From: Escherichia coli O157:H7
GTDB taxonomy: Bacteria; Pseudomonadota; Gammaproteobacteria; Enterobacterales; Enterobacteriaceae
NCBI RefSeq assembly: GCF_013167455.1
Contig: NZ_CP038328.1
Direction: 5' to 3' (one strand)
Length of the DNA: 64,000 nucleotides
How positions within the stretch are numbered: the stretch's first letter is position 1; every line of letters starts with the position of its first letter. The notes below the pieces were generated by a model, which was not told the DNA's origin, made no database searches, and was given only the letters and a program-made list of their open reading frames with translations. Both the position numbers and the translations under genes were made by a program. Below are positions 1-61,954 of this stretch, piece by piece.

Positions 1-1
1 T

Positions 2-346
<345 letters not shown>

Positions 347-652
347 CCCTGAATAGTATAAAAAATGAACGATTACCGCGATCTGTTGAGCGGGTGACAG
401 TGCACATAGCGTTGTGCTAAAAATATTTTATATATTCACATTAATTATGTGATTTAAATTGCTAAAACTGACAAATATATATTCTAAATAACAACTGGAT
501 TATTCCTTAGCAATTAATGATTACATTGTAATAAATCATATTCTTTAGCGATTATTTCAGGCAGTGTTGTGCCGAATTAAGCAAGTAGTCAATTCGTTGT
601 GTATTTATTTATACAATGATTTCGGTGTTCTGGAATTTAATTAGAGGAATCT

Positions 653-1753
653 ATGCGAGGGAAAAAACGCATTGGGTTATTGTTTTTGCTGATAGCGGTT
701 GTGGTTGGTGGTGGCGGGTTCTTGATGGCGCAAAAAGCCTTACATAAAACGTCGGATACAGCATTTTGCCTTTCCTGCCACTCGATGAGTAAACCTTTTG
801 AGGAATATCAGGGAACTGTCCACTTTTCGAACCAGAAAGGGATACGTGCGGAATGTGCCGATTGCCATATTCCAAAGTCAGGGATGGATTATTTATTCGC
901 TAAATTAAAAGCATCTAAAGATATTTATCATGAATTTGTTAGCGGCAAAATAGACAGTGACGATAAGTTCGAAGCTCATCGCCAGGAAATGGCCGAAACA
1001 GTATGGAAAGAATTAAAAGCAACTGACTCTGCAACGTGCCGTAGTTGCCATTCTTTTGATGCCATGGATATTGCCTCGCAAAGTGAATCTGCGCAGAAAA
1101 TGCATAACAAAGCACAAAAGGGCGGCGAAACCTGTATCGATTGTCATAAAGGCATTGCCCATTTTCCGCCAGAAATAAAAATGGATGACAACGCGGCGCA
1201 TGAGCTGGAAAGTCAGGCCGCTACTTCAGTGACTAATGGCGCACATATTTATCCTTTCAAAACTTCTCGCATAGGCGAGCTGGCTACCGTGAATCCTGGT
1301 ACCGATCTCACCGTCGTTGATGCCAGTGGCAAACAGCCGATCGTTCTGTTGCAGGGTTATCAAATGCAGGGCAGTGAAAACACGCTCTACCTGGCGGCAG
1401 GTCAACGGCTGGCGCTAGCCACATTAAGTGAAGAAGGTATCAAGGCGCTCACGGTAAACGGGGAATGGCAGGCTGACGAATACGGCAATCAATGGCGTCA
1501 GGCGTCTTTACAGGGTGCGCTTACCGATCCCGCATTAGCGGACCGTAAACTGCTATGGCAATACGCTGAAAAACTTGACGATACCTATTGCGCTGGTTGT
1601 CATGCCCCTATTGCCGCCGACCATTACACCGTCAATGCGTGGCCGTCCATTGCCAAAGGAATGGGGGCACGAACCAGCATGAGCGAAAACGAACTGGACA
1701 TTTTAACGCGGTATTTCCAGTACAACGCCAAAGATATTACCGAGAAACAGTGA
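653..1753 (+). CDS. torY: Pentaheme c-type cytochrome TorY (NapC/NirT family), membrane-anchored
   Basis: 366-aa ORF; N-terminal hydrophobic anchor; five CxxCH motifs (CLSCH, CADCH, CRSCH, CIDCH, CAGCH). Confidence 0.9.
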
Positions 1754-1777
1754 TCCTCGTTGATCAGGGAGGAAGTT

Positions 1778-4207
1778 ATGACATTAACAAGACGTGAATT
1801 TATTAAACACAGCGGTATTGCCGCTGGAGCGCTGGTGGTGACATCGGCAGCACCGCTACCCGCATGGGCAGAAGAGAAGGGCGGTAAAATCCTCACCGCG
1901 GGACGTTGGGGAGCGATGAACGTAGAAGTGAAGGACGGCAAGATTGTTTCTTCGACAGGCGCGCTGGCGAAAACCATACCGAACTCCTTACAGTCTACGG
2001 CGGCGGATCAGGTACACACCACGGCGCGTATTCAGCATCCGATGGTGAGAAAAAGCTATCTCGACAATCCACTGCAACCGGCGAAAGGTCGTGGCGAAGA
2101 TACCTATGTACAGGTGAGCTGGGAACAGGCATTAAAACTGATTCATGAGCAACATGAGCGTATTCGTAAAGCTAACGGACCATCGGCCATTTTTGCCGGA
2201 TCTTACGGCTGGCGCTCTTCTGGCGTGTTGCATAAAGCGCAAACCTTACTGCAACGTTATATGAACCTGGCGGGCGGTTATTCCGGGCATAGCGGCGATT
2301 ATTCAACCGGGGCAGCACAGGTGATCATGCCGCATGTGGTCGGTTCTGTAGAGGTGTATGAACAGCAGACCTCCTGGCCGCTGATTCTGGAAAACAGCCA
2401 GGTTGTGGTGCTGTGGGGAATGAACCCGCTGAATACCTTAAAAATTGCCTGGAGCAGTACCGATGAGCAAGGGCTGGAATACTTCCATCAGCTGAAAAAA
2501 TCTGGCAAACCAGTGATTGCCATTGATCCTATCCGCTCTGAAACCATCGAGTTCTTTGGCTATAATGCCACCTGGATCGCGCCGAATATGGGCACCGACG
2601 TGGCACTGATGTTAGGGATTGCGCATACCCTGATGACACAAGGCAAACACGATAAAGTGTTCCTTGAAAAATACACCACCGGGTATCCGCAGTTTGAAGA
2701 GTATCTGACAGGTAAGAGCGATAATACTCCGAAGAGCGCGGCCTGGACGGCGGAAATTACTGGCGTACCGGAAGCGCAGATAGTCAAACTCGCTGAACTG
2801 ATGGCGGCGAATCGCACAATGCTGATGGCAGGCTGGGGAATTCAGCGCCAGCAATATGGTGAACAGAAACACTGGATGCTGGTGACGCTGGCGGCGATGT
2901 TAGGGCAGATTGGTACACCGGGCGGCGGTTTTGGTTTCTCTTATCATTACTCCAACGGTGGCAACCCGACGCGTGTTGGCGGCGTGCTGCCGGAAATGTC
3001 TGCGGCGATTGCCGGACAGGCCAGCGAGGCCGCTGATGATGGCGGAATGACGGCGATTCCTGTTGCCCGTATCGTCGATGCGCTGGAAAATCCTGGCGGC
3101 AAATATCAGCATAACGGTAAAGAACAAACGTATCCGAATATCAAAATGATCTGGTGGGCGGGTGGCGGTAACTTTACCCATCACCAGGATACTAATCGTC
3201 TGATCAAAGCATGGCAGAAACCGGAGATGATCGTCGTTTCTGAATGCTACTGGACCGCAGCTGCTAAACATGCAGATATCGTATTACCGATCACCACATC
3301 GTTTGAGCGCAATGACTTGACGATGACCGGTGATTACAGCAACCAGCATATTGTACCGATGAAGCAGGCTGTCGCTCCGCAATTTGAAGCGCGAAACGAT
3401 TTTGACGTGTTTGCCGAACTTGCGGAATTACTGAAACCAGGCGGAAAAGAGATCTATACCGAAGGTAAAGATGAAATGGCGTGGCTGAAATTTTTCTATG
3501 ATGCCGCTCAGAAAGGTGCCCGTGCGCAACGCGTCACTATGCCAATGTTTAATGCCTTCTGGCAGCAAAATAAACTGATCGAAATGCGCCGCAGCGAGAA
3601 GAACGAACAGTACGTTCGTTATGGTGATTTCCGCGCCGATCCGGTGAAAAATGCGCTGGGTACGCCAAGCGGCAAAATTGAGATTTACTCCAAAACGCTG
3701 GAAAAATTTGGCTATAAGGATTGCCCGGCACACCCAACCTGGCTTGCGCCTGATGAGTGGAAAGGTACCGCCGACGAGAAGCAGTTACAGCTTCTGACCG
3801 CACATCCGGCACACCGTTTACACAGTCAGCTTAACTATGCGCAACTGCGTAAAAAATATGCGGTTGCCGATCGTGAACCAATCACTATTCACACCGAAGA
3901 TGCTGCTCGCTTTGGTATTGCGAATGGCGATCTGGTCCGTGTCTGGAACAAACGTGGTCAGATTTTGACAGGCGCTGTGGTGACTGACGGGATCAAAAAA
4001 GGCGTGGTATGCGTGCATGAAGGTGCATGGCCAGATCTGGAAAATGGCTTGTGTAAAAACGGCAGTGCGAACGTGTTAACGGCGGATATCCCCAGCTCGC
4101 AGCTGGCAAATGCCTGTGCCGGTAACTCTGCGCTGGTGTATATCGAAAAATATACGGGTAACGCACCGAAGTTAACGGCGTTTGATCAGCCAGCTGTTCA
4201 GGCATAA
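1778..4207 (+). CDS. torZ: Trimethylamine N-oxide / S-oxide reductase TorZ (BisZ), molybdopterin enzyme with Tat signal
   Basis: Twin-arginine motif TRREFIK at the N-terminus; about 809 aa from ATG at 1778 (ORF track starts 18 nt earlier at 1760); 7-nt gap after torY. Confidence 0.9.
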
Positions 4208-4254
4208 GACGTGAAAAGCGCCCGGAAACGGGCGCTGAGGTTATGCAAACATAA

Positions 4255-4360
4255 AGCTGCCTGATGCGCTATGCTTATCAGGCCTACATAGTCCCTGCAA
4301 TATATTGAATTAGCAAGGTTTTGTAGGCTGGATAAGGCGTTCACGCCGCATCCGGCAGTA
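4255..4360. repeat. REP (repetitive extragenic palindrome) pair between convergent torZ and cmoB
   Basis: gcctgatgcg...cttatcaggcctac and taggctggataaggcgttcacgccgcatccggca are classic REP sequences. Confidence 0.7.
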
Positions 4361-4371
4361 ATACCAGACCT

Positions 4372-6519
<2,148 letters not shown>

Positions 6520-6571
6520 ACAAACTCCCTTTAAAATGGCCGATGGCACCTGTCTATGATAGGTGGCAAAT

Positions 6572-7390
6572 TCAGAAAAGAGAAGATTGCTGTGGAATAG
6601 CCGGAACTGCTCCGATCTCTGGAAGCGTTTTACGTAAGTCTTCCCACAGGGTATGTACCAGTTCCGGGGCCTGGGCAATATCTGGCGTATGTAAAAAAAG
6701 ATAAGGCGTAGTGGTCTGATGCCACTGCGCTAATTTTTGTAACCAGACCTGAAATAATTCCCGGTTTTGCGTCATATCATCACTACCGATAAAACGGATC
6801 AGCGGATTTGTCGCCGTCAGTACAGCATGTACCGGAACTTTAGGTTTTTTTCGTTGAGCGTCGCGAATAGCTTCACTGTGTGGACGTGCTGCATGAACCG
6901 GGCGGCTGTCTAAAATCACCTGATTAACGCCGCGCTGATGTAAACCGCGATTAAGCGTTTGTTCCTCTTCCCCTTTGGCGAAAAACTGTGGATGGCGGAC
7001 TTCCACACCATAATTAAATTCGCCAGGGAGAGAATCGAGAAAATGCCAAAGCGCAGGCAGCTCCCGTGGGCCGAATGTGGCAGGCAGTTGCAGCCAGTAT
7101 TGCCCAATGCGCGGAGCCAACGGTGACATGCGGGTCAAAAATTCAGTCACTAAATCATCGCAATGTCGTAATGCTGCCTGATGCGAAATGGTCGCCGGAA
7201 ACTTAAAACAGAAGCGGAAGTCATCTGTGGTCTGTTCACGCCAGCGCAGGACAACCTCGGGTTTCGGCAGGGCGTAAAGCGTGGTGTTGCCCTCCACGCA
7301 GTTAAAGTGACGGGCATACTCTTCAAGGCTGGTGATCCCCAACCGCACCCATTTAGGATGCGACCATTGCGGTAGACCGATGTAAATCAT
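6572..7390 (-). CDS. yecE: DUF72 family protein YecE
   Basis: 272-aa ORF; start overlaps yecD stop by 4 nt. Confidence 0.8.
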
Positions 7391-7953
7391 AACGCGTTGA
7401 GGATCTCTTCCACGCTACGCACACGGGCGATGCGCGGGTAGATATGGTTGATACTGTTATTGTGCTGCTCGGCGCTAGCGGCACTACAGGCATCTTCGGC
7501 AATCACCAGATTAAAGCCAAGTTCCCAGGCATTGCGGGCGGTGGATTCAACTCCGATATTGGTCGAGATCCCACATAACACTATTGTATCGATACCTCGG
7601 CGGCGTAATTGCAACTCCAGATCCGTACCGTAAAACGCACCCCACTGACGTTTGATTATTTCGATATCACTGTCAGTTGCACCTAATGCAGCTGGATGTT
7701 GCCACCAGTTTTCGGGCAACACTTTAGCGGGGGAAGGGGCATCAACCGGCTGTTTTAATGCTTCGGCGTAATCGGCAGACCAGCCAACGCGCACCAGAAA
7801 CACGGGCTGACCGCTGGCGCGAAATTTCGCCGCCAGCTTCCCGGCGCGATTAACTACCTCATCGGCAGTATGTGGACCACCGGCAAAAGGTAAGATGCCT
7901 TCTTGTAAATCGATCACCACCAGCGCAGTGGTTTTAGCATTAAGTTCAAGCAT
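7387..7953 (-). CDS. yecD: Isochorismatase-family hydrolase YecD
   Basis: 188 aa from internal ATG (MLELNAK...); isochorismatase-like residues. Confidence 0.8.
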
Positions 7954-11408: not shown

Positions 11409-11930
11409 ATGGCTATTATTCTCGGCATTGATCCGGGTTCGCGCGTGACCGGCTACGGCGTCATCCGCCAGGTAGGTAGGCAACTGTCCTACCTGGGTAG
11501 CGGATGCATACGCACCAAAGTGGATGATTTACCGTCTCGTCTGAAACTCATCTATGCGGGCGTGACGGAAATCATCACCCAGTTCCAGCCCGATTATTTC
11601 GCCATTGAACAAGTCTTTATGGCAAAGAACGCTGACTCAGCCCTGAAACTGGGCCAGGCGCGCGGCGTGGCGATTGTGGCGGCGGTGAATCAGGAGTTGC
11701 CAGTATTTGAATACGCGGCACGTCAGGTAAAGCAAACGGTGGTAGGTATTGGTAGTGCCGAAAAAAGCCAGGTGCAGCATATGGTCCGCACCTTGCTGAA
11801 ACTGCCCGCTAATCCACAGGCGGATGCCGCCGATGCGCTGGCGATTGCCATCACCCACTGCCACGTTAGTCAGAATGCGATGCAGATGAGCGAATCGCGG
11901 CTGAACCTGGCGAGAGGGCGACTGCGTTAA
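11409..11930 (+). CDS. ruvC: Holliday junction resolvase RuvC
   Basis: 173 aa from the second ATG ([18 protein letters not shown]). Confidence 0.9.
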
Positions 11931-11931
11931 G

Positions 11932-12534
11932 TTATACCGCCTCGGTCAGTTCCGGCTGAGGCGTTTCCACTCCCTCCGCATGAATCAACACCAAACCTGG
12001 ATGATGCCACAAACTGGCTGGCGTGACGGTTTTACGCTCCCACGGAATAGAACCCAGGAACCAGAATTTCCAGAAAGTGAGTTTTGCATTCGGATTGCTA
12101 TTTAACAATTCTCCAAACGTCTCTATTTCACCCACCGGAATACATAGCGCTTCTTTATAAATATCAAAAACAAATTTTGAACAGAACTGGCGCGAAGATT
12201 CGTATTTAAAACCGGTGTGGTAAAGTTTGCGTAGCCGGGAGGGAACCTGTTCAACAATTCGTTGTTTTTGTTGTTCTGTCAGCCCAGCGTCTAATCGCTT
12301 TATAGCATAGCGTTGATTAGACGAACGTTTAATAAAACGAGATAGCGTGGTGATGGTTGAAAGGGGAACCCGGCTTTCTGCAACCAGGAAGTCTTCACCG
12401 TTATGACCGATAATGATCCCGACGTGATTACTCCAGCAATTTGATGCAGCTGATATTTGACCAAATAAGGCAGCACCTATACATGTAAAGACTTTATCTC
12501 CAATTTCATATTCAGCAGGGTAATTAATATTCAC
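11932..12534 (-). CDS. yebB: Uncharacterised protein YebB
   Basis: About 200 aa if started at GTG 12534 (reverse complement cac at 12532..12534); convergent with ruvC. Confidence 0.7.
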
Positions 12535-14440: not shown

Positions 14441-14675
14441 TCGGATTGGTCGCTCGCACCGCATCCGACATTGGCAGTGTGCCTGATGCGACGCTATTCG
14501 CGTCTTATCAGGCATATACCAGAGATAGCGAACCGTAGGTCGGAAAAGGCGCTCGCGCCGCATCCGACATTGGCAGTGTGCCTGATGCGACGCTGTTCGC
14601 GTCTTACCAGGCCTACCAGAGATAGCGAACCGTAGGTCGGATAAGGCGCTCGCGCCGCATCCGACAAATGTGTTC
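14441..14675. repeat. BIME-like cluster: tandem 98-bp units each carrying REP palindromes
   Basis: catccgacattggcagtgtgcctgatgcgacgct recurs at 14463 and 14561 (period 98 bp), with a partial third copy near 14655. Confidence 0.8.
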
Positions 14676-30017: not shown

Positions 30018-32764
<2,747 letters not shown>

Positions 32765-35592: not shown

Positions 35593-35677
35593 CATTTAAG
35601 CTGATGACCACCGCGCTTTTTATTGACCATTTTGCACGCAAACTGGAAAACCTGGCGTCGTCATCTATTCTTAAAGG

Positions 35678-35780
35678 GCAAGGCAACTAAGCCTGCATTA
35701 ATGCCAACTTTTAGCGCACGGCTCTCTCCCAAGAGCCATTTCCCTGGACCGAATACAGGAATCGTGTTCGGTCTCTTTTT
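35678..35780 (+). ncRNA. sdsR: SdsR (RyeB) sigma-S-dependent sRNA
   Basis: Sequence gcaaggcaactaagcctgcattaatgcc...gaccgaatacaggaatcgtgttcggtctcttttt recognised; sigma-S-like -10 CTATTCT at 35665..35671; terminal hairpin GACCGAA/TTCGGTC plus U-run. Confidence 0.8.
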
Positions 35781-35914
35781 ATCTGTTAAAAGCCAGAAGC
35801 ATTTCCTTCGCTGACTTTATAGTCAACCATAACACACACTCTACTGTCTGAGTCCAGCGTTTTTTAACATTCTTGTTAAGATTATGTGATCTTTAGCGCG
35901 GGAGGAAAATATTG

Positions 35915-36571
35915 ATGAAACAGCCTGCGCCCGTTTATCAGAGAATTGCGGGTCATCAATGGCGACATATCTGGCTTTCTGGCGATATACACGGTTGTCT
36001 TGAGCAGTTGCGCCGCAAATTATGGCATTGTCGTTTTGATCCGTGGCGAGATTTACTTATCTCAGTGGGAGACGTTATCGATCGTGGGCCGCAAAGTTTA
36101 CGTTGTCTGCAGTTACTGGAACAACATTGGGTTCGTGCGGTAAGAGGCAATCATGAACAGATGGCGATGGATGCGCTGGCATCCCAGCAGATGTCTTTGT
36201 GGTTGATGAATGGCGGCGACTGGTTTATTGCGCTGGCAGATAATCAACAGAAACAAGCGAAAACGGCGCTGGAAAAATGTCAGCATTTGCCCTTTATTCT
36301 TGAAGTACACAGCCGCACCGGCAAACATGTTATTGCTCATGCCGATTATCCAGATGATGTTTATGAATGGCAAAAGGACGTTGATTTGCATCAGGTCTTG
36401 TGGAGCCGCTCGCGATTAAGTGAACGCCAAAAAGGGCAGGGAATTACAGGTGCTGATCATTTCTGGTTTGGTCATACACCGTTGCGCCATCGCGTGGATA
36501 TTGGCAACCTGCATTATATTGATACCGGCGCTGTCTTTGGGGGCGAACTGACTTTCGTGCAATTGCAATAA
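35915..36571 (+). CDS. pphA: Serine/threonine protein phosphatase 1
   Basis: 218 aa; calcineurin-like metallophosphatase motifs GDIHG, GDVIDRG, GNHE. Confidence 0.85.
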   Translation: MKQPAPVYQRIAGHQWRHIWLSGDIHGCLEQLRRKLWHCRFDPWRDLLISVGDVIDRGPQSLRCLQLLEQHWVRAVRGNHEQMAMDALASQQMSLWLMNGGDWFIALADNQQKQAKTALEKCQHLPFILEVHSRTGKHVIAHADYPDDVYEWQKDVDLHQVLWSRSRLSERQKGQGITGADHFWFGHTPLRHRVDIGNLHYIDTGAVFGGELTFVQLQ

Positions 36572-36763
36572 TTAAAAATCACCATACTCCTGTGCTGGTC
36601 GCCAGAAACCATCTATAAAATCCTCAATCGGAAAACAACCGCCATGACGGATCCGTTGATCGCTCATAGAATAAAGACACTGCTGTTCCGTGTTGTAGAC
36701 ATCCACAACAATATCTTCACAACCGCCATCCAGGTAGCAAACAAAAAGTACCAGCGCGAACAT
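36572..36763 (-). CDS. yebW: Uncharacterised protein YebW
   Basis: 63 aa from the internal ATG; stop abuts the pphA stop. Confidence 0.65.
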   Translation of the reverse strand: MFALVLFVCYLDGGCEDIVVDVYNTEQQCLYSMSDQRIRHGGCFPIEDFIDGFWRPAQEYGDF

Positions 36764-51824: not shown

Positions 51825-52634
51825 ATGTCGTTTTCCTGTCCACTTTGCCATCAGCCTCTTACGCGTGAAAAAAACAGCTATATCTGTCCCCAACGACATC
51901 AGTTTGATATGGCGAAAGAAGGGTATGTCAATCTGCTGCCCGTTCAGCATAAACGGTCTCGTGATCCGGGCGACAGCGCGGAAATGATGCAAGCACGCCG
52001 CGCATTCTTAGATGCCGGACATTATCAGCCGCTGCGTGATGCAATTGTCGCCCAACTGCGTGAACGGCTTAATGAAAAGGCCACGGCGGTGCTGGATATT
52101 GGCTGTGGTGAAGGGTATTACACACACGCATTTGCCGATGCGTTGCCCGAAATCACCACGTTTGGTCTGGATGTTTCGAAGGTAGCGATAAAAGCGGCGG
52201 CGAAACGCTATCCGCAGGTCACTCTTTGTGTCGCTTCCAGCCACCGTTTGCCGTTTTCCGATACCAGTATGGACGCCATAATACGTATTTACGCGCCGTG
52301 TAAAGCAGAAGAATTAGCACGAGTAGTGAAGCCCGGCGGCTGGGTCATTACTGCCACGCCGGGACCGCGACATTTGATGGAGCTGAAGGGGCTGATTTAC
52401 AATGAAGTACATCTTCATGCACCTCATGCAGAACAACTGGAAGGTTTTACATTACAGAAGAGTGATGAGTTGTGTTATCCGATGCGTCTTCGCGGTGATG
52501 AAGCCGTCGCATTATTGCAGATGACGCCGTTTGCCTGGCGTGCGAAGCCAGAAGTCTGGCAAATACTGGCAGCAAAAGAAGTGTTCGACTGCCAGACGGA
52601 CTTTAATATTCACCTCTGGCAGCGTTCTTATTAA
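51825..52634 (+). CDS. rlmA: 23S rRNA m1G745 methyltransferase RlmA
   Basis: 269 aa; N-terminal Cys4 zinc motif (CPLC...CPQRH), SAM motif DIGCGEGY. Confidence 0.9.
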
Positions 52635-53197
52635 CCGTGGAAGTGCGTCCAGAGGATCTGGACGCCGATGCCGATCAGCACCAGCCCGCCGAGAATTTCC
52701 GCTTTTTTCCCAATAATTGAGCCGATAAAGCGACCAACCATCATCCCTAATGTCGACATAATCAAGGTTGCACAACCAATGGCCAATGCGGTCGCGATAA
52801 TGTTGACCTGAAGGAAAGCAAGACCAACACCCACAGCCATGGCATCCAGGCTGGTGGCAATCGCGGTGGTTACCAGTAGCCAGAAACCGTGCCGACGGCG
52901 CGGCTCTTCATCTTCATCATCTGCGCCACGAAAACCCTCAATAATCATTCGCCCGCCGAGGAATATCAGCAGCACAAACGCAATCCAGTGATTCCATTCA
53001 AGGACAAACCGGCTGGCTAACATGCCCATTCCCCAGCCGATCAGCGGCGTCAGGGTTTCGACGGCACCAAAAATAAGGCCGGTTCGCAATGCTTCAGAAA
53101 ATTTCGGTTTATGGAGGGTGGCACCTTTACCGATTGATGCAGCAAATGCATCCATCGACATACCAAACGCAAGAAGAACAGTAGCAGTGATATTCAT
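52631..53197 (-). CDS. mntP: Manganese exporter MntP
   Basis: 188 aa from the internal ATG ([18 protein letters not shown]); the 81 upstream codons of the ORF-track entry read through the riboswitch leader. Confidence 0.85.
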
Positions 53198-56838: not shown

Positions 56839-57300
56839 TTGCTACCTCCTTTATTATCGTTAACACCTCAACGTGCCAGATGTATTTTTGAATCGTCGTC
56901 CACAATCGAATCGATTCAGATAAGGGCTACAACCAAAAACCCCTGCGTTTCGCGATTTATTTTAGATATCGAAAAAATTATTTTATGTGATGAAGATCCG
57001 TAATTTAACTTTCGATTAGCAGAAATTTCGAAAGGTAAAATATCCTTGTCACATTCGTTTGCAAAGGAAGGTAAATCTTTGCCAAATCAGAGGCGTCTCT
57101 GATATGTTTAACTCCCGTTTAACAATCATGGAGTATAGGGCAGTAGCCCGCAGTATGGATCGTCACCGACGTCATTTCAGCATCAGGCCTTTTAACGCCT
57201 GCCTTTCTGGCACTCTATGCCGCACCTTTCGTTTGCATTTTGTCGTTACGCCTGCATTATTTCTGGCGTCGAATAGCTATTCCTTAAGCAGGAGCTTGTC

Positions 57301-58857
57301 ATGGAATTCTTAATGGACCCCTCAATTTGGGCGGGGCTACTCACGCTTGTTGTTCTCGAAATTGTGCTGGGTATCGATAACCTGGTCTTCATCGCCATTC
57401 TTGCTGACAAACTGCCGCCAAAACAACGCGATAAAGCGCGTTTGCTGGGGTTATCACTGGCGCTGATTATGCGTCTGGGGCTGCTGTCGCTGATTTCATG
57501 GATGGTCACGCTGACCAAACCGCTATTTACCGTCATGGATTTCTCCTTCTCCGGACGCGACCTGATTATGTTGTTCGGGGGGATATTCTTGCTGTTCAAA
57601 GCAACAACCGAACTGCATGAACGGCTGGAAAACCGCGATCATGATTCCGGCCACGGTAAAGGCTACGCCAGTTTCTGGGTGGTCGTCACACAGATTGTCA
57701 TCCTTGACGCCGTCTTCTCGTTGGATGCGGTAATTACTGCAGTAGGGATGGTTAACCATCTGCCGGTGATGATGGCGGCGGTAGTGATTGCGATGGCGGT
57801 TATGTTGCTGGCATCCAAACCGCTGACGCGATTCGTTAACCAGCACCCCACGGTGGTGGTGCTCTGTCTGAGCTTCCTGTTAATGATTGGTCTGAGTCTG
57901 GTGGCAGAAGGTTTCGGTTTCCACATTCCGAAAGGTTACCTGTATGCCGCGATTGGCTTCTCGATCATCATCGAAGTGTTTAACCAGATTGCGCGTCGCA
58001 ACTTTATTCGTCACCAGTCGACTTTGCCGCTGCGAGCGCGTACTGCCGATGCCATCCTGCGTTTGATGGGCGGGAAACGTCAGGCCAATGTTCAGCACGA
58101 TGCCGATAACCCGATGCCGATGCCGATCCCGGAAGGTGCATTTGCCGAAGAAGAACGTTACATGATTAACGGCGTACTGACGCTGGCGTCGCGTTCTCTG
58201 CGCGGGATCATGACGCCGCGCGGTGAAATAAGCTGGGTTGACGCTAATCTCGGGGTCGATGAAATCCGCGAGCAGCTGCTCTCCTCACCGCACAGCCTGT
58301 TCCCGGTATGTCGCGGTGAACTGGATGAAATCATCGGAATCGTACGTGCTAAAGAACTGCTGGTGGCGCTGGAAGAGGGCGTTGATGTGGCGGCGATTGC
58401 TTCGGCGTCTCCGGCGATTATCGTCCCTGAAACCCTCGATCCGATCAACCTGCTGGGCGTGCTGCGTCGTGCTCGCGGGAGCTTTGTTATCGTGACCAAC
58501 GAGTTTGGTGTGGTACAAGGCTTGGTCACGCCGCTGGATGTGCTGGAAGCCATTGCGGGTGAATTCCCGGACGCTGACGAAACGCCGGAAATCATTACTG
58601 ATGGTGACGGCTGGCTGGTAAAAGGCGGTACAGATTTGCATGCCTTGCAGCAGGCGCTTGATGTTGAGCACCTTGCCGATGACGATGATATCGCGACGGT
58701 CGCGGGCCTCGTGATCTCGGCAAATGGTCACATTCCCCGTGTGGGCGATGTGATTGATGTAGGGCCACTGCATATCACCATCATTGAAGCCAATGATTAT
58801 CGTGTTGATCTGGTTCGCATTGTTAAAGAGCAACCGGCGCACGATGAAGATGAGTAA
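57301..58857 (+). CDS. yoaE: TerC-family membrane protein with C-terminal CBS / CorC domains, YoaE
   Basis: 518-aa ORF. Confidence 0.85.
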
Positions 58858-58860
58858 GCG

Positions 58861-60459
58861 TTAACGTAACGGCATAATGGGCGTGATATGTCCATTATGC
58901 CGGGCGGGCGGCGGTTGGCTGCCCGCCAGCCATTTGGGAAAATCACGTAGCGGCATCGGCTGTGCGTACAAATACCCTTGCAAAATATGCACGCCATGAC
59001 GGCGCAAATACTTCGCCTGTTCTTGCGTTTCCACGCCCTCCGCCACCAGTTCAATATTCAGTCTTTGCCCCAGCGCGATGATGATATCGGTCACCGTCGA
59101 GTTAACCGCGTCAGAACCTATAGCTGCGGTAAATGACTTATCAATTTTCAGCACGTCAGGACGTAATGTTTCAAGCCAGGAAAATGAACTGTTGCCGGTG
59201 CCGAAGTCATCAATCGCCAGTTTGACGTTTTTACGATGTAGCTCGCGGGCAATCCGATAATCAACATCCAGTAAGGCATCGCGTTCGGTGATTTCGAGGA
59301 TCAGTTGCTGAATCGGGTGAGCGCTAAACCAGTACTGATTGAGATCTTTTATCAGCACACCACGGCGAAAATGGCTGGGTGCGACGTTAATGCCAACATG
59401 AAACTGACTACTCATCGGGAAAACATGGCGCTGACGAATGGTTTCTGCCATCACATAGCGGGTCAGTGGCACAATTAAATGATGTTCTTCCGCGATAGGA
59501 ATAAACACATCCGGTGAAATCCAGCCCTGACGCGGATTGTTCCAGCGCAGCAAAATCTCTACACCAATACATTGCTGGCTGCGCGCATTAAGCAAAGGCT
59601 GACAGAACAATTCGAACTCATGTTGCGCCAGGCCCAGATTGATTTCGCGGGAAAAGCTCATTCGGTAAGCGGTCGCCAGCCAGGCGATGTAGCCCACCAG
59701 TAAACTTAGCAGTACCGCCAGCGGTAATTGTGTTGGAAGATAGTGCCATGCCAGCGCCGGAGCCCCCGGACCATTAACGTTAATGGTAAAAGAAAAGCGT
59801 TGCGAAGAAACCTGATAGTTTTCATTGTCTTCAGGTTGTGGAAGGGAATCTACCAGCCCATTACCATAGAGCAAATGCCGTTTGTCCACCGTCAGGCTGG
59901 CGCTACTGATTTGCGGCAGTTGTGGCTCAAGCAGCATTGCCGTCAGTAAGTCGATGTTAATCATCTCCATGACCCCAGCATTGCTACTGCTCGCTGCAGG
60001 CGTCCATTGAATCAAAACCGGACTGCCTTTAATCAGGACACGGTCGGTCGTCAGGCGTAAAAGTGGTTGCGGTGCAGGAAGTTCAGCCAGAATGTCCACG
60101 ACGGGCACATTGCGATAACCAAAAATGCTGGAGCAATAAAGTGTGCCGTCTTGCACCAGGCCAATGGATCGCACAGTTTGGAGTTTTGCCGCCTGTTTAC
60201 GTAATGGCAAATGGGCGACAGAGCAGGGCAGACCAATCAGCGGAAGCAAGACTTCGCTACCTGCCTGTAGGGGAAGCAGTACTTTATCTAATTCCTCTAC
60301 AGCGTGATTGGCGAATTGTACTACCCGTTGTTGATTTAAGTTACGCTGTGAAATAAATCGCACGCTCAGGGTCGAAGCGAGCGTAACGAGTGCGCAAATC
60401 GTACAAACAATCATTCGATTACGGCGATAGGTTTTAATGATCCGTTGTGCTTTTTGCAT
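58861..60459 (-). CDS. pdeD: c-di-GMP phosphodiesterase PdeD (YoaD), CSS-EAL type
   Basis: 532 aa from the internal ATG (MQKAQRIIK); EAL-domain motifs incl. EITER at the usual EAL position. Confidence 0.85.
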   Translation of the reverse strand: MQKAQRIIKTYRRNRMIVCTICALVTLASTLSVRFISQRNLNQQRVVQFANHAVEELDKVLLPLQAGSEVLLPLIGLPCSVAHLPLRKQAAKLQTVRSIGLVQDGTLYCSSIFGYRNVPVVDILAELPAPQPLLRLTTDRVLIKGSPVLIQWTPAASSSNAGVMEMINIDLLTAMLLEPQLPQISSASLTVDKRHLLYGNGLVDSLPQPEDNENYQVSSQRFSFTINVNGPGAPALAWHYLPTQLPLAVLLSLLVGYIAWLATAYRMSFSREINLGLAQHEFELFCQPLLNARSQQCIGVEILLRWNNPRQGWISPDVFIPIAEEHHLIVPLTRYVMAETIRQRHVFPMSSQFHVGINVAPSHFRRGVLIKDLNQYWFSAHPIQQLILEITERDALLDVDYRIARELHRKNVKLAIDDFGTGNSSFSWLETLRPDVLKIDKSFTAAIGSDAVNSTVTDIIIALGQRLNIELVAEGVETQEQAKYLRRHGVHILQGYLYAQPMPLRDFPKWLAGSQPPPARHNGHITPIMPLR

Positions 60460-60589
60460 GCGGGCCACTCTGTAAGCGTATGGCGACAAACGCCTGACGC
60501 AACAGTGGAAGTGTAGTGGGGAATATTACAGCAGACGAGAAAGCGGGGATAAATTCGCCCATCCGTTGCAGATGGGCGAGTAAGAAGTA

Positions 60590-61954
60590 TTAGTCACACT
60601 GGACTTTGATTGCCAGACCACCGCGTGAGGTTTCGCGGTATTTGGCGTTCATGTCCTTACCGGTTTCGTACATCGTTTCGATGACCTTATCCAGCGAGAC
60701 GCGCGGTGCACTGGTGCGGCGCAGAGCCATCCGTGCGGCGTTAATCGCCTTCACAGAGGCAATGGCATTACGCTCAATGCACGGCACCTGAACCTGCCCT
60801 GCAACCGGGTCGCAGGTTAAACCAAGGTTGTGTTCCATGCCAATTTCCGCCGCCACGCAAACCTGTTCCGGGCTACCGCCCAGCAGTTCTGCAAGACCCG
60901 CAGCAGCCATTGAACAGGCAACACCCACTTCGCCCTGGCAACCAACTTCCGCACCGGAAATAGAGGCGTTCATTTTATACAATGCACCAATCGCGCCCGC
61001 TGCCATAAAGTAACGGGTATAGATGTCCGGGCTGACCGATTCAATAAAGTGGTCATAGTAAGCCAGCACTGCCGGAACGATACCGCAGGCACCGTTGGTT
61101 GGCGCAGTTACCACACGACCACCGGCGGCGTTTTCTTCGTTAACTGCCAGCGCAAACATGTTTACCCAGTCAATGACATTCATCGGATCGTTAGACAGTT
61201 TATCGCTGGAAACCAGCATCCGGCGCAGGGCAGACGCACGACGTGGCACGCGCAGCGGGCCTGGCAGTACACCTTCGGTGTTCATCCCGCGATCGATACA
61301 TGCCTGCATGGTTTGCCAGACATGCGCGAAATACTCGTCGATCTCTTTCTTGCTGTGCAGCGCCAGTTCGTTCTGCATAGCGAGACCAGACAGCGAATAG
61401 CCGGTTTCATTACAGTACGCGAGCAGTTCGGTGGCAGATTTGAACGGATACGGCACGCTCACTTCGTTGGCAGTATCCTGACCAAAGTGTTCTTCATCGA
61501 CGATAAAACCGCCGCCGATGGAATAATAAGTTTTGCTGTAGACGACTTCATCGCCGTTATAGGCGTGGATTTGCATACCGTTTTCATGCAGCGGCAGGTT
61601 GCCGTTATGAAAACGCATCCCGTTGTCGCGCGGGAAATCCACTTCATGCCGTCCCTGTGCCAGCAGCAGACGTTCGCGCTCTTCTACGTCGCGAATAAAA
61701 CCGGGAATACTGTCGATATCCACGGTGGCAGGTTCGTTACCTGCAAGACCCATAATAATGGCGATATCGGTGTGGTGGCCTTTACCCGTCAGCGACAGTG
61801 AACCATAAACGTCCACGGCAACGCGAGTAACGCTATCCAGTAAGCCTTTTTCGACCAGATCATCGACGAACTGTTTACCCGCCTTCATAGGCCCTACGGT
61901 ATGGGAAGATGAGGGACCAATCCCCACCTTAAACATGTCGAATAGACTAATCAC
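60590..61954 (-). CDS. sdaA: L-serine dehydratase 1
   Basis: 454-aa ORF. Confidence 0.95.

Follow-up and report, generated by a model that had tools for sequence, protein, structure and literature searches.

Conserved stem-loops of the yoaE transcript within the last codons of pdeD at a tight convergent junction of Escherichia coli

Among the closest described counterparts of the arrangement reported here is the class of Rho-dependent transcripts with protective 3′ stem-loops, for which a general mechanism has been published (Dar & Sorek 2018, NAR, PMC6061677; model of Peters et al.). Members of this class carry a stem-loop without a U tract soon after the stop codon, an excess of C over G downstream and bicyclomycin-sensitive termination further on. 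These features recur past the E. coli gene yoaE, which converges on pdeD; at two other genes, rlmA and ruvC, the likeness extends to a steady-state 3′ end 5–6 nt past the stem. The difference lies in location. Here both the stem-loops and the sequence presumed to be the rut site are written within the opposing gene’s coding sequence, whereas the described class has them in a 3′ UTR or between genes. The stable 3′ end of yoaE is only predicted.

Three further systems bear comparison. Overlapping bidirectional terminators (Ju et al. 2019), as far as the account of Wang et al. (2022) describes them, also place a palindromic hairpin where convergent genes meet and give overlapping transcripts. However, the class so described is intergenic and Rho-independent, whereas yoaE/pdeD has no usable spacer, its element is in pdeD codons and its read-through is Rho-sensitive. 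Pervasive convergent 3′ overlap and double-stranded RNA (Conway et al. 2014; Lybecker et al. 2014; Huang et al. 2020) likewise involve complementary 3′ ends and RNase III-cleaved duplexes; the loci studied here match that genome-wide pattern, at low abundance and with nothing to distinguish them. Finally, REP elements, dual 3′ UTR regulators of which one is carried by approximately 30% of 704 E. coli convergent pairs (bioRxiv 10.64898/2026.03.23.713779), are also palindromic hairpins at convergent junctions, able to block decay or termination.

Our best explanation, which we consider probable, is that the 3′-end signals of yoaE lie in the facing tail of pdeD, with release by Rho followed by trimming to protective stem-loops, at what are otherwise ordinary compact junctions. 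The architecture is ordinary and known; the dual-use tail of pdeD adds a modest new example and introduces no new mechanism.

Tight convergent junctions in the window

An initial annotation of the window, a 64,000-nucleotide stretch of E. coli O157:H7 DNA (RefSeq assembly GCF_013167455.1, contig NZ_CP038328.1), had reported that the stops of yoaE/pdeD, pphA/yebW and ptrB/exoX fall within a few nucleotides of each other. The open reading frame listing and the RefSeq annotation of identical or near-identical E. coli records agree on this geometry, which is also annotated in K-12 MG1655; all six are annotated as genes in both RefSeq and K-12. Two further tight pairs in the window, rlmA/mntP and ruvC/yebB, were absent from that first list. 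The window lacks the prophage of NZ_AP018488.1, and the coordinate match to that strain fails left of approximately 7.6 kb. The coding sequences are as follows, those of yoaE and pdeD resting on the open reading frame listing, RefSeq and Pfam.

57301..58857, + strand: yoaE (TerC/CBS/CorC-type membrane protein), stop TAA at 58855–58857
58858..58860, no strand: 3-nt spacer GCG separating the yoaE and pdeD stops, from the sequence
58861..60459, − strand: pdeD (yoaD), CSS-motif and EAL domains, 532 aa, stop read as TTA on the + strand at 58861–58863
35915..36571, + strand: pphA, stop TAA at 36569–36571
36572..36763, − strand: yebW, 63 aa, 0-nt gap to pphA (TAA abutting TTA)
30045..32105, + strand: ptrB, stop TAG at 32103–32105
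32102..32764, − strand: exoX, stop overlapping that of ptrB by 4 nt (TTAG at 32102–32105; TAG for ptrB, TTA, i.e. TAA, for exoX)
51825..52634, + strand: rlmA, overlapping mntP by TTAA at 52631–52634
52631..53197, − strand: mntP, convergent partner of rlmA
11409..11930, + strand: ruvC, 1-nt gap (11931) to yebB
11932..12534, − strand: yebB, convergent partner of ruvC

We defined a convergent junction as tight when the gap between the coding sequences is ≤4 nt. By this measure 5 of the 11 convergent junctions in the window are tight, as are 5 of 18 in three arbitrary 50-kb regions of K-12 (gaps in nt: cueR/ybbJ 0, ypdC/fryA 2, yfeH/ypeB −4, asnA/viaA 4 and rbsR/hsrA −35). The window is not enriched (Fisher p = 0.43), and pooling gives 10 of 29 (95% CI 18–54%). 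Tight convergent ends are common in E. coli, and those described here are ordinary tail-to-tail junctions of a compact chromosome. Overlaps of 4 nt arising from complementary stop codons are a known prokaryotic tail-to-tail arrangement; TTAG (ptrB/exoX) and TTAA (rlmA/mntP) do not differ from these textbook shared-stop overlaps, since TTA is the complement of TAA. Overlapping and abutting tail-to-tail genes of prokaryotes have reportedly been treated in comparative-genomics studies by Rogozin (2002), Johnson & Chisholm (2004) and Kingsford (2007).

The initial annotation had concluded that such junctions leave no room for separate terminators. Intergenic room is indeed nil, and a consensus terminator scan of the yoaE/pdeD, pphA/yebW and ptrB/exoX junctions found no terminator at the stops. 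However, the conclusion fails because 3′-end signals sit in the partner’s coding sequence, as with the yoaE stem-loops and the 3′ ends of rlmA and ruvC. A zero-length convergent spacer does not imply that termination or 3′-stability signals are absent, because these can lie in the partner’s codons, and annotation calls for caution on this point.

Stem-loops of the yoaE transcript and their conservation

The 121 nt past the yoaE stop fold into two tandem hairpins (z = −3.98 versus shuffles), identified by folding.

58870..58902, + strand: stem-loop 1 of the yoaE 3′ region, 15 pairs, 3-nt loop
58903..58927, + strand: stem-loop 2 of the yoaE 3′ region, 10 G+C-rich pairs, 5-nt loop, no U tract

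Stem-loop 1 starts 12 nt past the yoaE stop, leaving 6 nt between it and the pdeD stop; its opposite strand encodes PdeD residues approximately 519–530 (RHNGHITPIMP). In stem-loop 2, the 5′ arm overlaps the PdeD PPPA codons and the 3′ arm, GCTGCCCGCC (58918–58927), overlaps the codons for the conserved LAG of the WLAG motif. Both stem-loops (58870–58927) fall within pdeD codons 511–530, beyond the EAL domain, which ends at residue 501 (Pfam). As the stem-loops are written in the last pdeD codons, the PdeD tail (residues approx. 511–532) is a dual-use sequence, and we propose, as part of our best explanation, that it owes its form chiefly to the RNA structure of the transcript from the opposite strand. 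Stem 2 is followed by AGCCAUUUGGG; the G+C-rich stem-loop of an intrinsic terminator is present but its run of 7–8 U is absent. An Rfam scan of the junction yielded only sub-threshold chance matches (mir-2001, scoring 22 bits where the gathering score is 74). Unlike REP elements, the hairpins are single-copy in the window (≤3 mismatches allowed), intragenic, without a REP annotation in K-12 and without a match to the Rfam naRNA4 model, and we rejected that assignment.

The yoaE/pdeD locus is present in 5421 of 5426 E. coli genomes. Among 80 Enterobacteriaceae species, 77 show the convergent arrangement, and 54 have a gap of 0–8 nt. Tandem hairpins recur across genera with differing stems, for example GGCATAATGG/CCATTATGCC, GAAGGCCGG/CCGGTCTTC and AACGGCACCGCA/TGCGGTGCCGTT. 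RNAalifold applied to a codon-anchored alignment recovered only 5 pairs and no one consensus structure, since the register of the stems differs from lineage to lineage; pairs were instead counted in the E. coli register, and each species was folded against synonymous recodings. In that register 75.8% of cells are paired, compared with 31–50% for slid partners. The covariation score is 0.225 (0.06–0.13 for slid partners), and 11 pairs are altered on both sides, although the relatedness of the compared species inflates such counts and the p-values. The last approximately 24 pdeD codons of 53 Enterobacteriaceae species, each set against 200 synonymous recodings of the same peptide, gave a median z of −3.2, with 81% of species below −2.

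In the yoaE sense there are 128 G.U against 33 A.C pairs, a ratio of 3.9 (slid controls 1.0–2.6), and the yoaE-sense fold is the more stable strand in 42 of 53 species. The excess of G.U over A.C pairs, together with the turnover of the stems, disfavours a palindrome acting at the DNA level as a protein binding site or cruciform.

Conservation could instead belong to the protein, the conserved feature being the PdeD C-terminal peptide, or to a structure serving translation of pdeD mRNA, with the hairpins a by-product of the codons. The tail motif PPPARHNGH..P.MPLR is fairly conserved and recognisable from Escherichia to Buttiauxella, and in E. coli even synonymous recodings of the tail fold somewhat better than shuffles (−27.6 versus −23.4 kcal/mol). 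Against this stand the real sequences, which in 81% of species fold far better than their recodings, and stems that persist through non-synonymous changes, such as an N codon changing from AAT to AAC paired with an I to V change. Tails of the Cedecea type (HEDRAIPAFPMR) and of the Franconibacter type (ENGTAVRAVPLR) make entirely different stems, and the tail lies outside the EAL domain and is absent in Klebsiella, Raoultella and Kluyvera. Hairpin 1 also outlasts pdeD itself: a hairpin-1-like stem is kept in two of the three species without the gene. In one, L037, the last 14 pdeD codons alone remain of the deleted gene and correspond to hairpin 1; in the other, L066, the stem is flanked by A and T runs. 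Klebsiella, with its short PdeD, has a canonical hairpin in the spacer, followed in K. spallanzanii (L049) by a T run; a U run was found in other species only where the element is intergenic (L049 and L066). Taken with this evidence, an origin in the peptide or in pdeD translation is very unlikely.

A stronger form of our proposal can be put forward only tentatively, and we think it may well not hold. The C-terminal approximately 20 residues of PdeD may be an overprinted peptide, its reading frame having run through the yoaE stem-loops so that RNA pairing largely set the sequence and coupled the codons (RHNG with PIMP, PPPA with WLAG), an arrangement kept across most Enterobacteriaceae. Most genera keep a distance of 6 nt between the pdeD stop and the base of stem 1, so the same element may cap both mRNAs, which would make it a shared bidirectional 3′-end module without intergenic DNA. 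Whatever its history, yoaE/pdeD is a clean, conserved case of nucleotide-level constraint on a protein tail, of relevance to dN/dS analyses, synonymous recoding, genome refactoring and the engineering of yoaE or pdeD, as truncation or recoding of the pdeD tail could destabilise yoaE mRNA.

Termination, transcript overlap and mapped 3′ ends

Three features beyond the stem-loops bear on the fate of the yoaE transcript. The Rho region and the duplex come from published K-12 data; all expression data used here derive from that strain, which is not the strain of the window.

58968..59100, + strand (yoaE sense): C-rich, G-poor tract (C 35–37%, G 17–19%), candidate rut site
59109, + strand: window equivalent of the published K-12 Rho termination region 1899777(−) past yoaE, antisense to pdeD
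58946..58970, no strand: RNase III-generated, p19-captured 22-bp duplex, both strands recovered (U00096.2 1897940–1897964)

Among 12 785 segments of 78 nt taken along the + strand of the whole 64 kb, only 34 are as skewed as the C-rich tract. C exceeds G at +100 to +250 in 97–99% of 74 species, although this could simply stem from coding constraint on conserved EAL codons. The Rho region is 252 nt past the yoaE stop (score 5.5, p = 1.2e-6; Adams et al. 2021, PMC7815308, supplementary file 2). The same K-12 DirectRNA-seq comparison with and without bicyclomycin (BCM) shows sensitive read-through past exoX (1927253(+), score 6.3), rlmA (1906268(−), 10.2) and ruvC (1946742(−), 7.8).

We envisage the following sequence of events. 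The yoaE transcript would extend beyond its stop codon into sequence antisense to pdeD, where it would fold into the two tandem stem-loops, the reverse complement of the last approximately 20 pdeD codons. Transcription would proceed through the C-rich, G-poor tract, which we infer to serve as the rut site, with Rho probably releasing the RNA approximately 250 nt downstream. Exonucleases acting from the 3′ end would presumably trim the tail back to the stem-loops, which would then protect yoaE mRNA, while the overlap would permit low-level pairing of yoaE and pdeD RNA and cutting by RNase III. Published Term-seq under three growth conditions shows no curated 3′ end within approximately 300 nt of the junction, where reads are low (51/9 untreated). 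The SMRT-Cappable-seq supplements do not mention the genes of yoaE/pdeD, pphA/yebW or ptrB/exoX, and a literature search for yoaE together with yoaD found nothing relevant.

The stem-loops might alternatively act as a collision-type terminator, overlapping and bidirectional, at which polymerases pause in both directions, head-on collisions end both transcripts and the pdeD 3′ end, directly past its stop, is also defined and protected. The mechanism is already published, in so far as Wang et al. (2022) set it out in summarising Ju et al. (2019); hairpins can form on both strands (pdeD-sense fold, mean −33.6 kcal/mol), the 6-nt distance from the pdeD stop to stem 1 is conserved, and no other structure or Rho region was seen for pdeD transcripts inside yoaE. 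On pdeD mRNA, however, the hairpins fall in a translated region, and the G.U excess points, like the difference in stability, to yoaE-sense RNA. Rho-sensitive read-through of yoaE also sits poorly with a class described, in that account, as Rho-independent. Published K-12 data further indicate that Rho apparently halts most pdeD transcription 16 nt into the gene, which should make collisions rare. On balance we regard a collision terminator as unlikely.

Overlap of the convergent transcripts, which the initial annotation had held to be unavoidable, is supported for four of the five tight pairs, each time in a single direction (yoaE into pdeD, exoX into ptrB, rlmA into mntP and ruvC into yebB), while pphA/yebW is without a mapped end. 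At yoaE/pdeD the duplex at 58946–58970 is the yoaE 3′ extension paired with pdeD mRNA, sense with antisense; its abundance is low, 1.0–1.6 RPM (Huang et al. 2020, PMC7373196, Table S3). Convergent overlap is a general and already published property of E. coli, where 276 of 370 convergent operons (approx. 75%) overlap, by a mean of 286 nt, and double-stranded RNA has been reported from most genes.

Such overlap, which the initial annotation suggested may let the transcripts interfere, invites the idea that tight junctions were selected as excludon-like antisense devices, with yoaE/pdeD, pphA/yebW and ptrB/exoX repressing each other reciprocally through collision or RNase III. The overlapping transcripts and the double-stranded cleavage product would fit, as would the pphA antisense reads, which on a tentative reading of the columns of Huang Table S1 (PMC7373196) approximate the sense reads (16.0/12.5, 6.6/9.0 and 6.4/7.1). 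Yet roughly one in four to one in three of the convergent junctions sampled are tight, 75% of convergent operons overlap anyway, double-stranded RNA arises from most genes with the duplex here at only about 1 RPM, and the partner genes show no evident functional opposition. We therefore hold selection for antisense repression to be highly improbable.

At the other junctions the picture divides. At pphA/yebW we found neither a stable structure past either stop nor a mapped 3′ end or Rho region. The exoX-sense Rho region of K-12 corresponds to window position 31631, 471 nt into ptrB antisense; curated Term-seq 3′ ends are lacking near exoX/ptrB, as near pphA/yebW. Folding in the pphA/yebW, pdeD and exoX directions is within the expectation from synonymous recoding (z = +1.15, +0.09, +0.60 and +0.07), and no embedded signal was demonstrated in the pdeD, exoX or ptrB directions. 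These directions would suit a reading in which nothing is functional, the stops having been brought close by deletion bias and chance extension of reading frames, and transcripts ending wherever Rho catches them. As an account of the junctions in general we give it almost no credence: it fails for yoaE, rlmA and ruvC, whose embedded hairpins are conserved and/or at mapped 3′ ends. The published Term-seq and Rho data place the latter two as follows.

52645–52665: rlmA hairpin within mntP, with the primary 3′ end at window position 52671
11938–11963: ruvC hairpin within yebB, with the primary 3′ end at window position 11968 and the Rho region at 12043

These primary ends lie 37 (rlmA) and 38 nt (ruvC) past the stop codon, and the steady-state 3′ ends are 6 and 5 nt past the stem, respectively, with a Rho region near each. 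Since both are mapped inside the partner coding sequences, the convergent transcripts overlap, and the embedded 3′-end architecture is experimentally verified at rlmA and ruvC by published K-12 data.

Convergent gene ends in the window

The initial annotation flagged three junctions (yoaE/pdeD, pphA/yebW and ptrB/exoX) as convergent genes ending within a few nucleotides of each other, and the ORF listing and RefSeq annotation confirmed their coordinates. Two further tight pairs, rlmA/mntP and ruvC/yebB, were absent from that list.

Tight convergent pairs (window coordinates, strand, description; the six single genes are from the ORF listing and RefSeq annotation)
57301..58857, +, yoaE
58861..60459, -, pdeD, 3-nt spacer from yoaE
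35915..36571, +, pphA
36572..36763, -, yebW, zero spacer to pphA (TAA/TTA)
30045..32105, +, ptrB
32102..32764, -, exoX, shared TTAG: TAG ends ptrB, TTA (complement of TAA) ends exoX
51825-53197, rlmA + and mntP -, TTAA overlap at 52631-52634
11409-12534, ruvC + and yebB -, 1-nt gap at 11931 (junction 11930/11932)

Tight junctions (≤4 nt) thus account for 5 of the 11 convergent CDS junctions of the window and, in three arbitrary 50-kb regions of K-12, for 5 of 18 (cueR/ybbJ, ypdC/fryA, yfeH/ypeB, asnA/viaA and rbsR/hsrA), with no enrichment in the window (Fisher p = 0.43). Such ends are ordinary. E. coli has approximately 704 convergent pairs (bioRxiv 10.64898/2026.03.23.713779), and Conway et al. 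(2014) found complementary 3′ ends at 276 of 370 convergent operons, with a mean overlap of 286 nt. Positions 57000-60700 are 100% identical in E. coli O157:H7 chromosomes, and the yoaE/pdeD locus was found in 5421 of 5426 complete E. coli genomes. Elsewhere, the 245-nt znuB/ruvB convergent spacer holds a REP-type element (14538-14613), a usual REP location, which matches Rfam naRNA4 (61.5 bits, gathering score 59.5).

Tandem stem-loops downstream of yoaE

A scan for stem-plus-U-tract terminators yielded no match at the three flagged junctions. The 121 nt 3′ of the yoaE stop nevertheless fold into two tandem stem-loops (z = -3.98 against shuffles), starting 12 nt 3′ of the stop and lying wholly within pdeD codons 511-530, outside the EAL domain of PdeD, which ends at residue 501.

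Stem-loops from folding (window coordinates, strand, description)
58870-58902, yoaE-sense (+), stem-loop 1, 15 pairs
58903-58927, yoaE-sense (+), stem-loop 2, 10 G+C-rich pairs

At the three flagged junctions, no comparable local hairpin formed past the remaining five stops, while the 120 nt 3′ of the ptrB stop have an overall fold better than synonymous recodings (z -3.0). At its other end, yoaE is preceded by the small ORF yoaL (57155-57313), which runs 13 nt into its start codon region and may act as a leader or uORF.

yoaE loci were taken from 80 representative species, and 77 of them carry pdeD next to yoaE in convergent orientation. The two stops lie 0-8 nt apart in 54 loci; wider gaps of 9-90 nt are seen chiefly in Klebsiella, Raoultella and Kluyvera, whose PdeD stops soon after WLA. 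Tandem hairpins directly follow the yoaE stop in multiple genera, with differing stem sequences. In a codon-anchored alignment of 36 species, 75.8% of cells pair in the E. coli register compared with 31-50% for slid partners (covariation scores 0.225 and 0.06-0.13, respectively); RNAalifold found no single consensus in the codon-anchored alignment because stem registers shift between lineages.

The stem-loops could conceivably be a by-product of the PdeD amino-acid sequence. We rejected this explanation because real pdeD tails in 53 species fold far better than 200 synonymous variants encoding the identical peptide (last approx. 24 codons; median z -3.2, 81% below -2). The stems also survive non-synonymous changes, as in tails ending ...HEDRAIPAFPMR and ...ENGTAVRAVPLR. 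The yoaE sense is favoured: G.U pairs outnumber A.C pairs by 128 to 33 (ratio 3.9, against 1.0-2.6 in slid controls), and the yoaE-sense RNA is more stable than the opposite sense in 42 of 53 species. Loss of pdeD was seen in three species. In Intestinirhabdus (locus L037) only its last 14 codons remain, corresponding to hairpin 1, and another (L066) keeps a hairpin-1-like stem between A and T runs, in the form of a canonical bidirectional terminator. Taken together, pairing, recoding, strand asymmetry and pdeD deletions argue from sequence that the tandem element is part of the yoaE 3′ end, with the PdeD tail apparently written over it. This dual-use tail appears to be undescribed so far; the general phenomena behind the junction are already known. 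In K. pneumoniae (L044, 2490-2600), the yoaE hairpin is intergenic and PdeD has an (SE)n-rich tail (SREESESESESEGESETTE) that CTCACT-type hexamer repeats encode.

Rho termination and mapped 3′ ends

Bicyclomycin-sensitive termination regions (Rho regions) mapped in K-12 by Adams et al. (2021; PMC7815308) lie antisense to pdeD, 252 nt past the yoaE stop (1899777(-); window 59109), antisense to ptrB, 471 nt past the exoX stop (1927253(+); window 31631), at the rlmA end (1906268(-); score 10.2) and antisense to yebB (1946742(-); window 12043). Published primary Term-seq 3′ ends of K-12 fall 37 nt past the rlmA stop, inside mntP (1906214; window 52671), and 38 nt past the ruvC stop, inside yebB (1946817; window 11968). 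The former is 6 nt after the hairpin GCGTCCAGA-GGA-TCTGGACGC (52645-52665, inside mntP) and the latter 5 nt after a 10-bp hairpin (11938-11963, inside yebB). These hairpins were the best candidates of a blind scan; synonymous recodings reached the real fold in 0 of 60 cases for rlmA and 7 of 60 for ruvC. No curated K-12 Term-seq 3′ ends were found near yoaE/pdeD, pphA/yebW or exoX/ptrB, where read counts are low.

In the model of Dar & Sorek (2018; PMC6061677), Rho-ended transcripts are trimmed to a stable stem-loop lacking a U tract, with the rut site directly 3′ of it. The rlmA and ruvC ends, just past hairpins and with Rho regions nearby, match this model. Downstream of yoaE, the placement of a C-rich, G-poor tract past the stem-loops (58968-59100, sense strand; C 35-37%, G 17-19%) agrees with that of the rut site. 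The tract runs up to the reported Rho position, and among 12785 windows of 78 nt along this strand of the 64 kb, just 34 show as strong a C>G skew. The tract is kept in 97-99% of 74 species, which coding constraints may explain. For pphA/yebW, we found no structure, mapped end or Rho signal whatever, and diffuse Rho termination may suffice. The initial view that these junctions leave no room for terminators is right about the missing spacer, but terminator and putative stabiliser signals are present within the coding sequence of the facing gene, with Rho ending the transcripts.

A further Rho region lies 16 nt into pdeD (window 60443; K-12 1898443(+); score 9.6, p 3.6e-21), which suggests weak pdeD transcription and premature termination of transcripts entering from sdaA or its own promoter.

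Transcript overlap and duplexes

Huang et al. (2020; PMC7373196) recovered a 22-bp perfectly paired RNase III product at U00096.2 1897940-1897964, each strand being represented (87 and 139 reads; 1.0 and 1.6 RPM). Its sequence, UAGCGGCAUCGGCUGUGCGUAC, corresponds to window 58948-58969, starting 21 nt beyond stem 2. RNA reading through from yoaE therefore pairs with pdeD mRNA in vivo, at a low level; according to the same study, most E. coli genes yield dsRNA. The proposal that convergent transcripts overlap is borne out, in one direction, for four of the five tight pairs (yoaE into pdeD, exoX into ptrB, rlmA into mntP and ruvC into yebB).

RNase III/p19 duplexes near the exoX 5′ end (U00096.2 1924173-1924252, approx. 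30-110 nt into the gene) imply that exoX is covered by antisense RNA, which may come from ptrB transcripts reading through its full length. Antisense and sense reads for pphA are about equal, unlike its neighbours (16.0/12.5, 6.6/9.0 and 6.4/7.1 in Table S1 of Huang et al., with column meaning inferred from the ryeA/ryeB rows), consistent with yebW read-through. Just 5′ of pphA lies the fully complementary sRNA pair SdsR(RyeB)/RyeA(SraC) (35640-35784; Rfam 114, 175 bits), a known RNase III dsRNA hot spot.

At the left end, positions 1-7600 have a K-12-like order (MicL/cutC at 37-344, torYZ, cmoAB) and lack the prophage beside yecD in the otherwise identical O157:H7 chromosome NZ_AP018488.1, from which the coordinates are offset by 1 nt around 12 kb.
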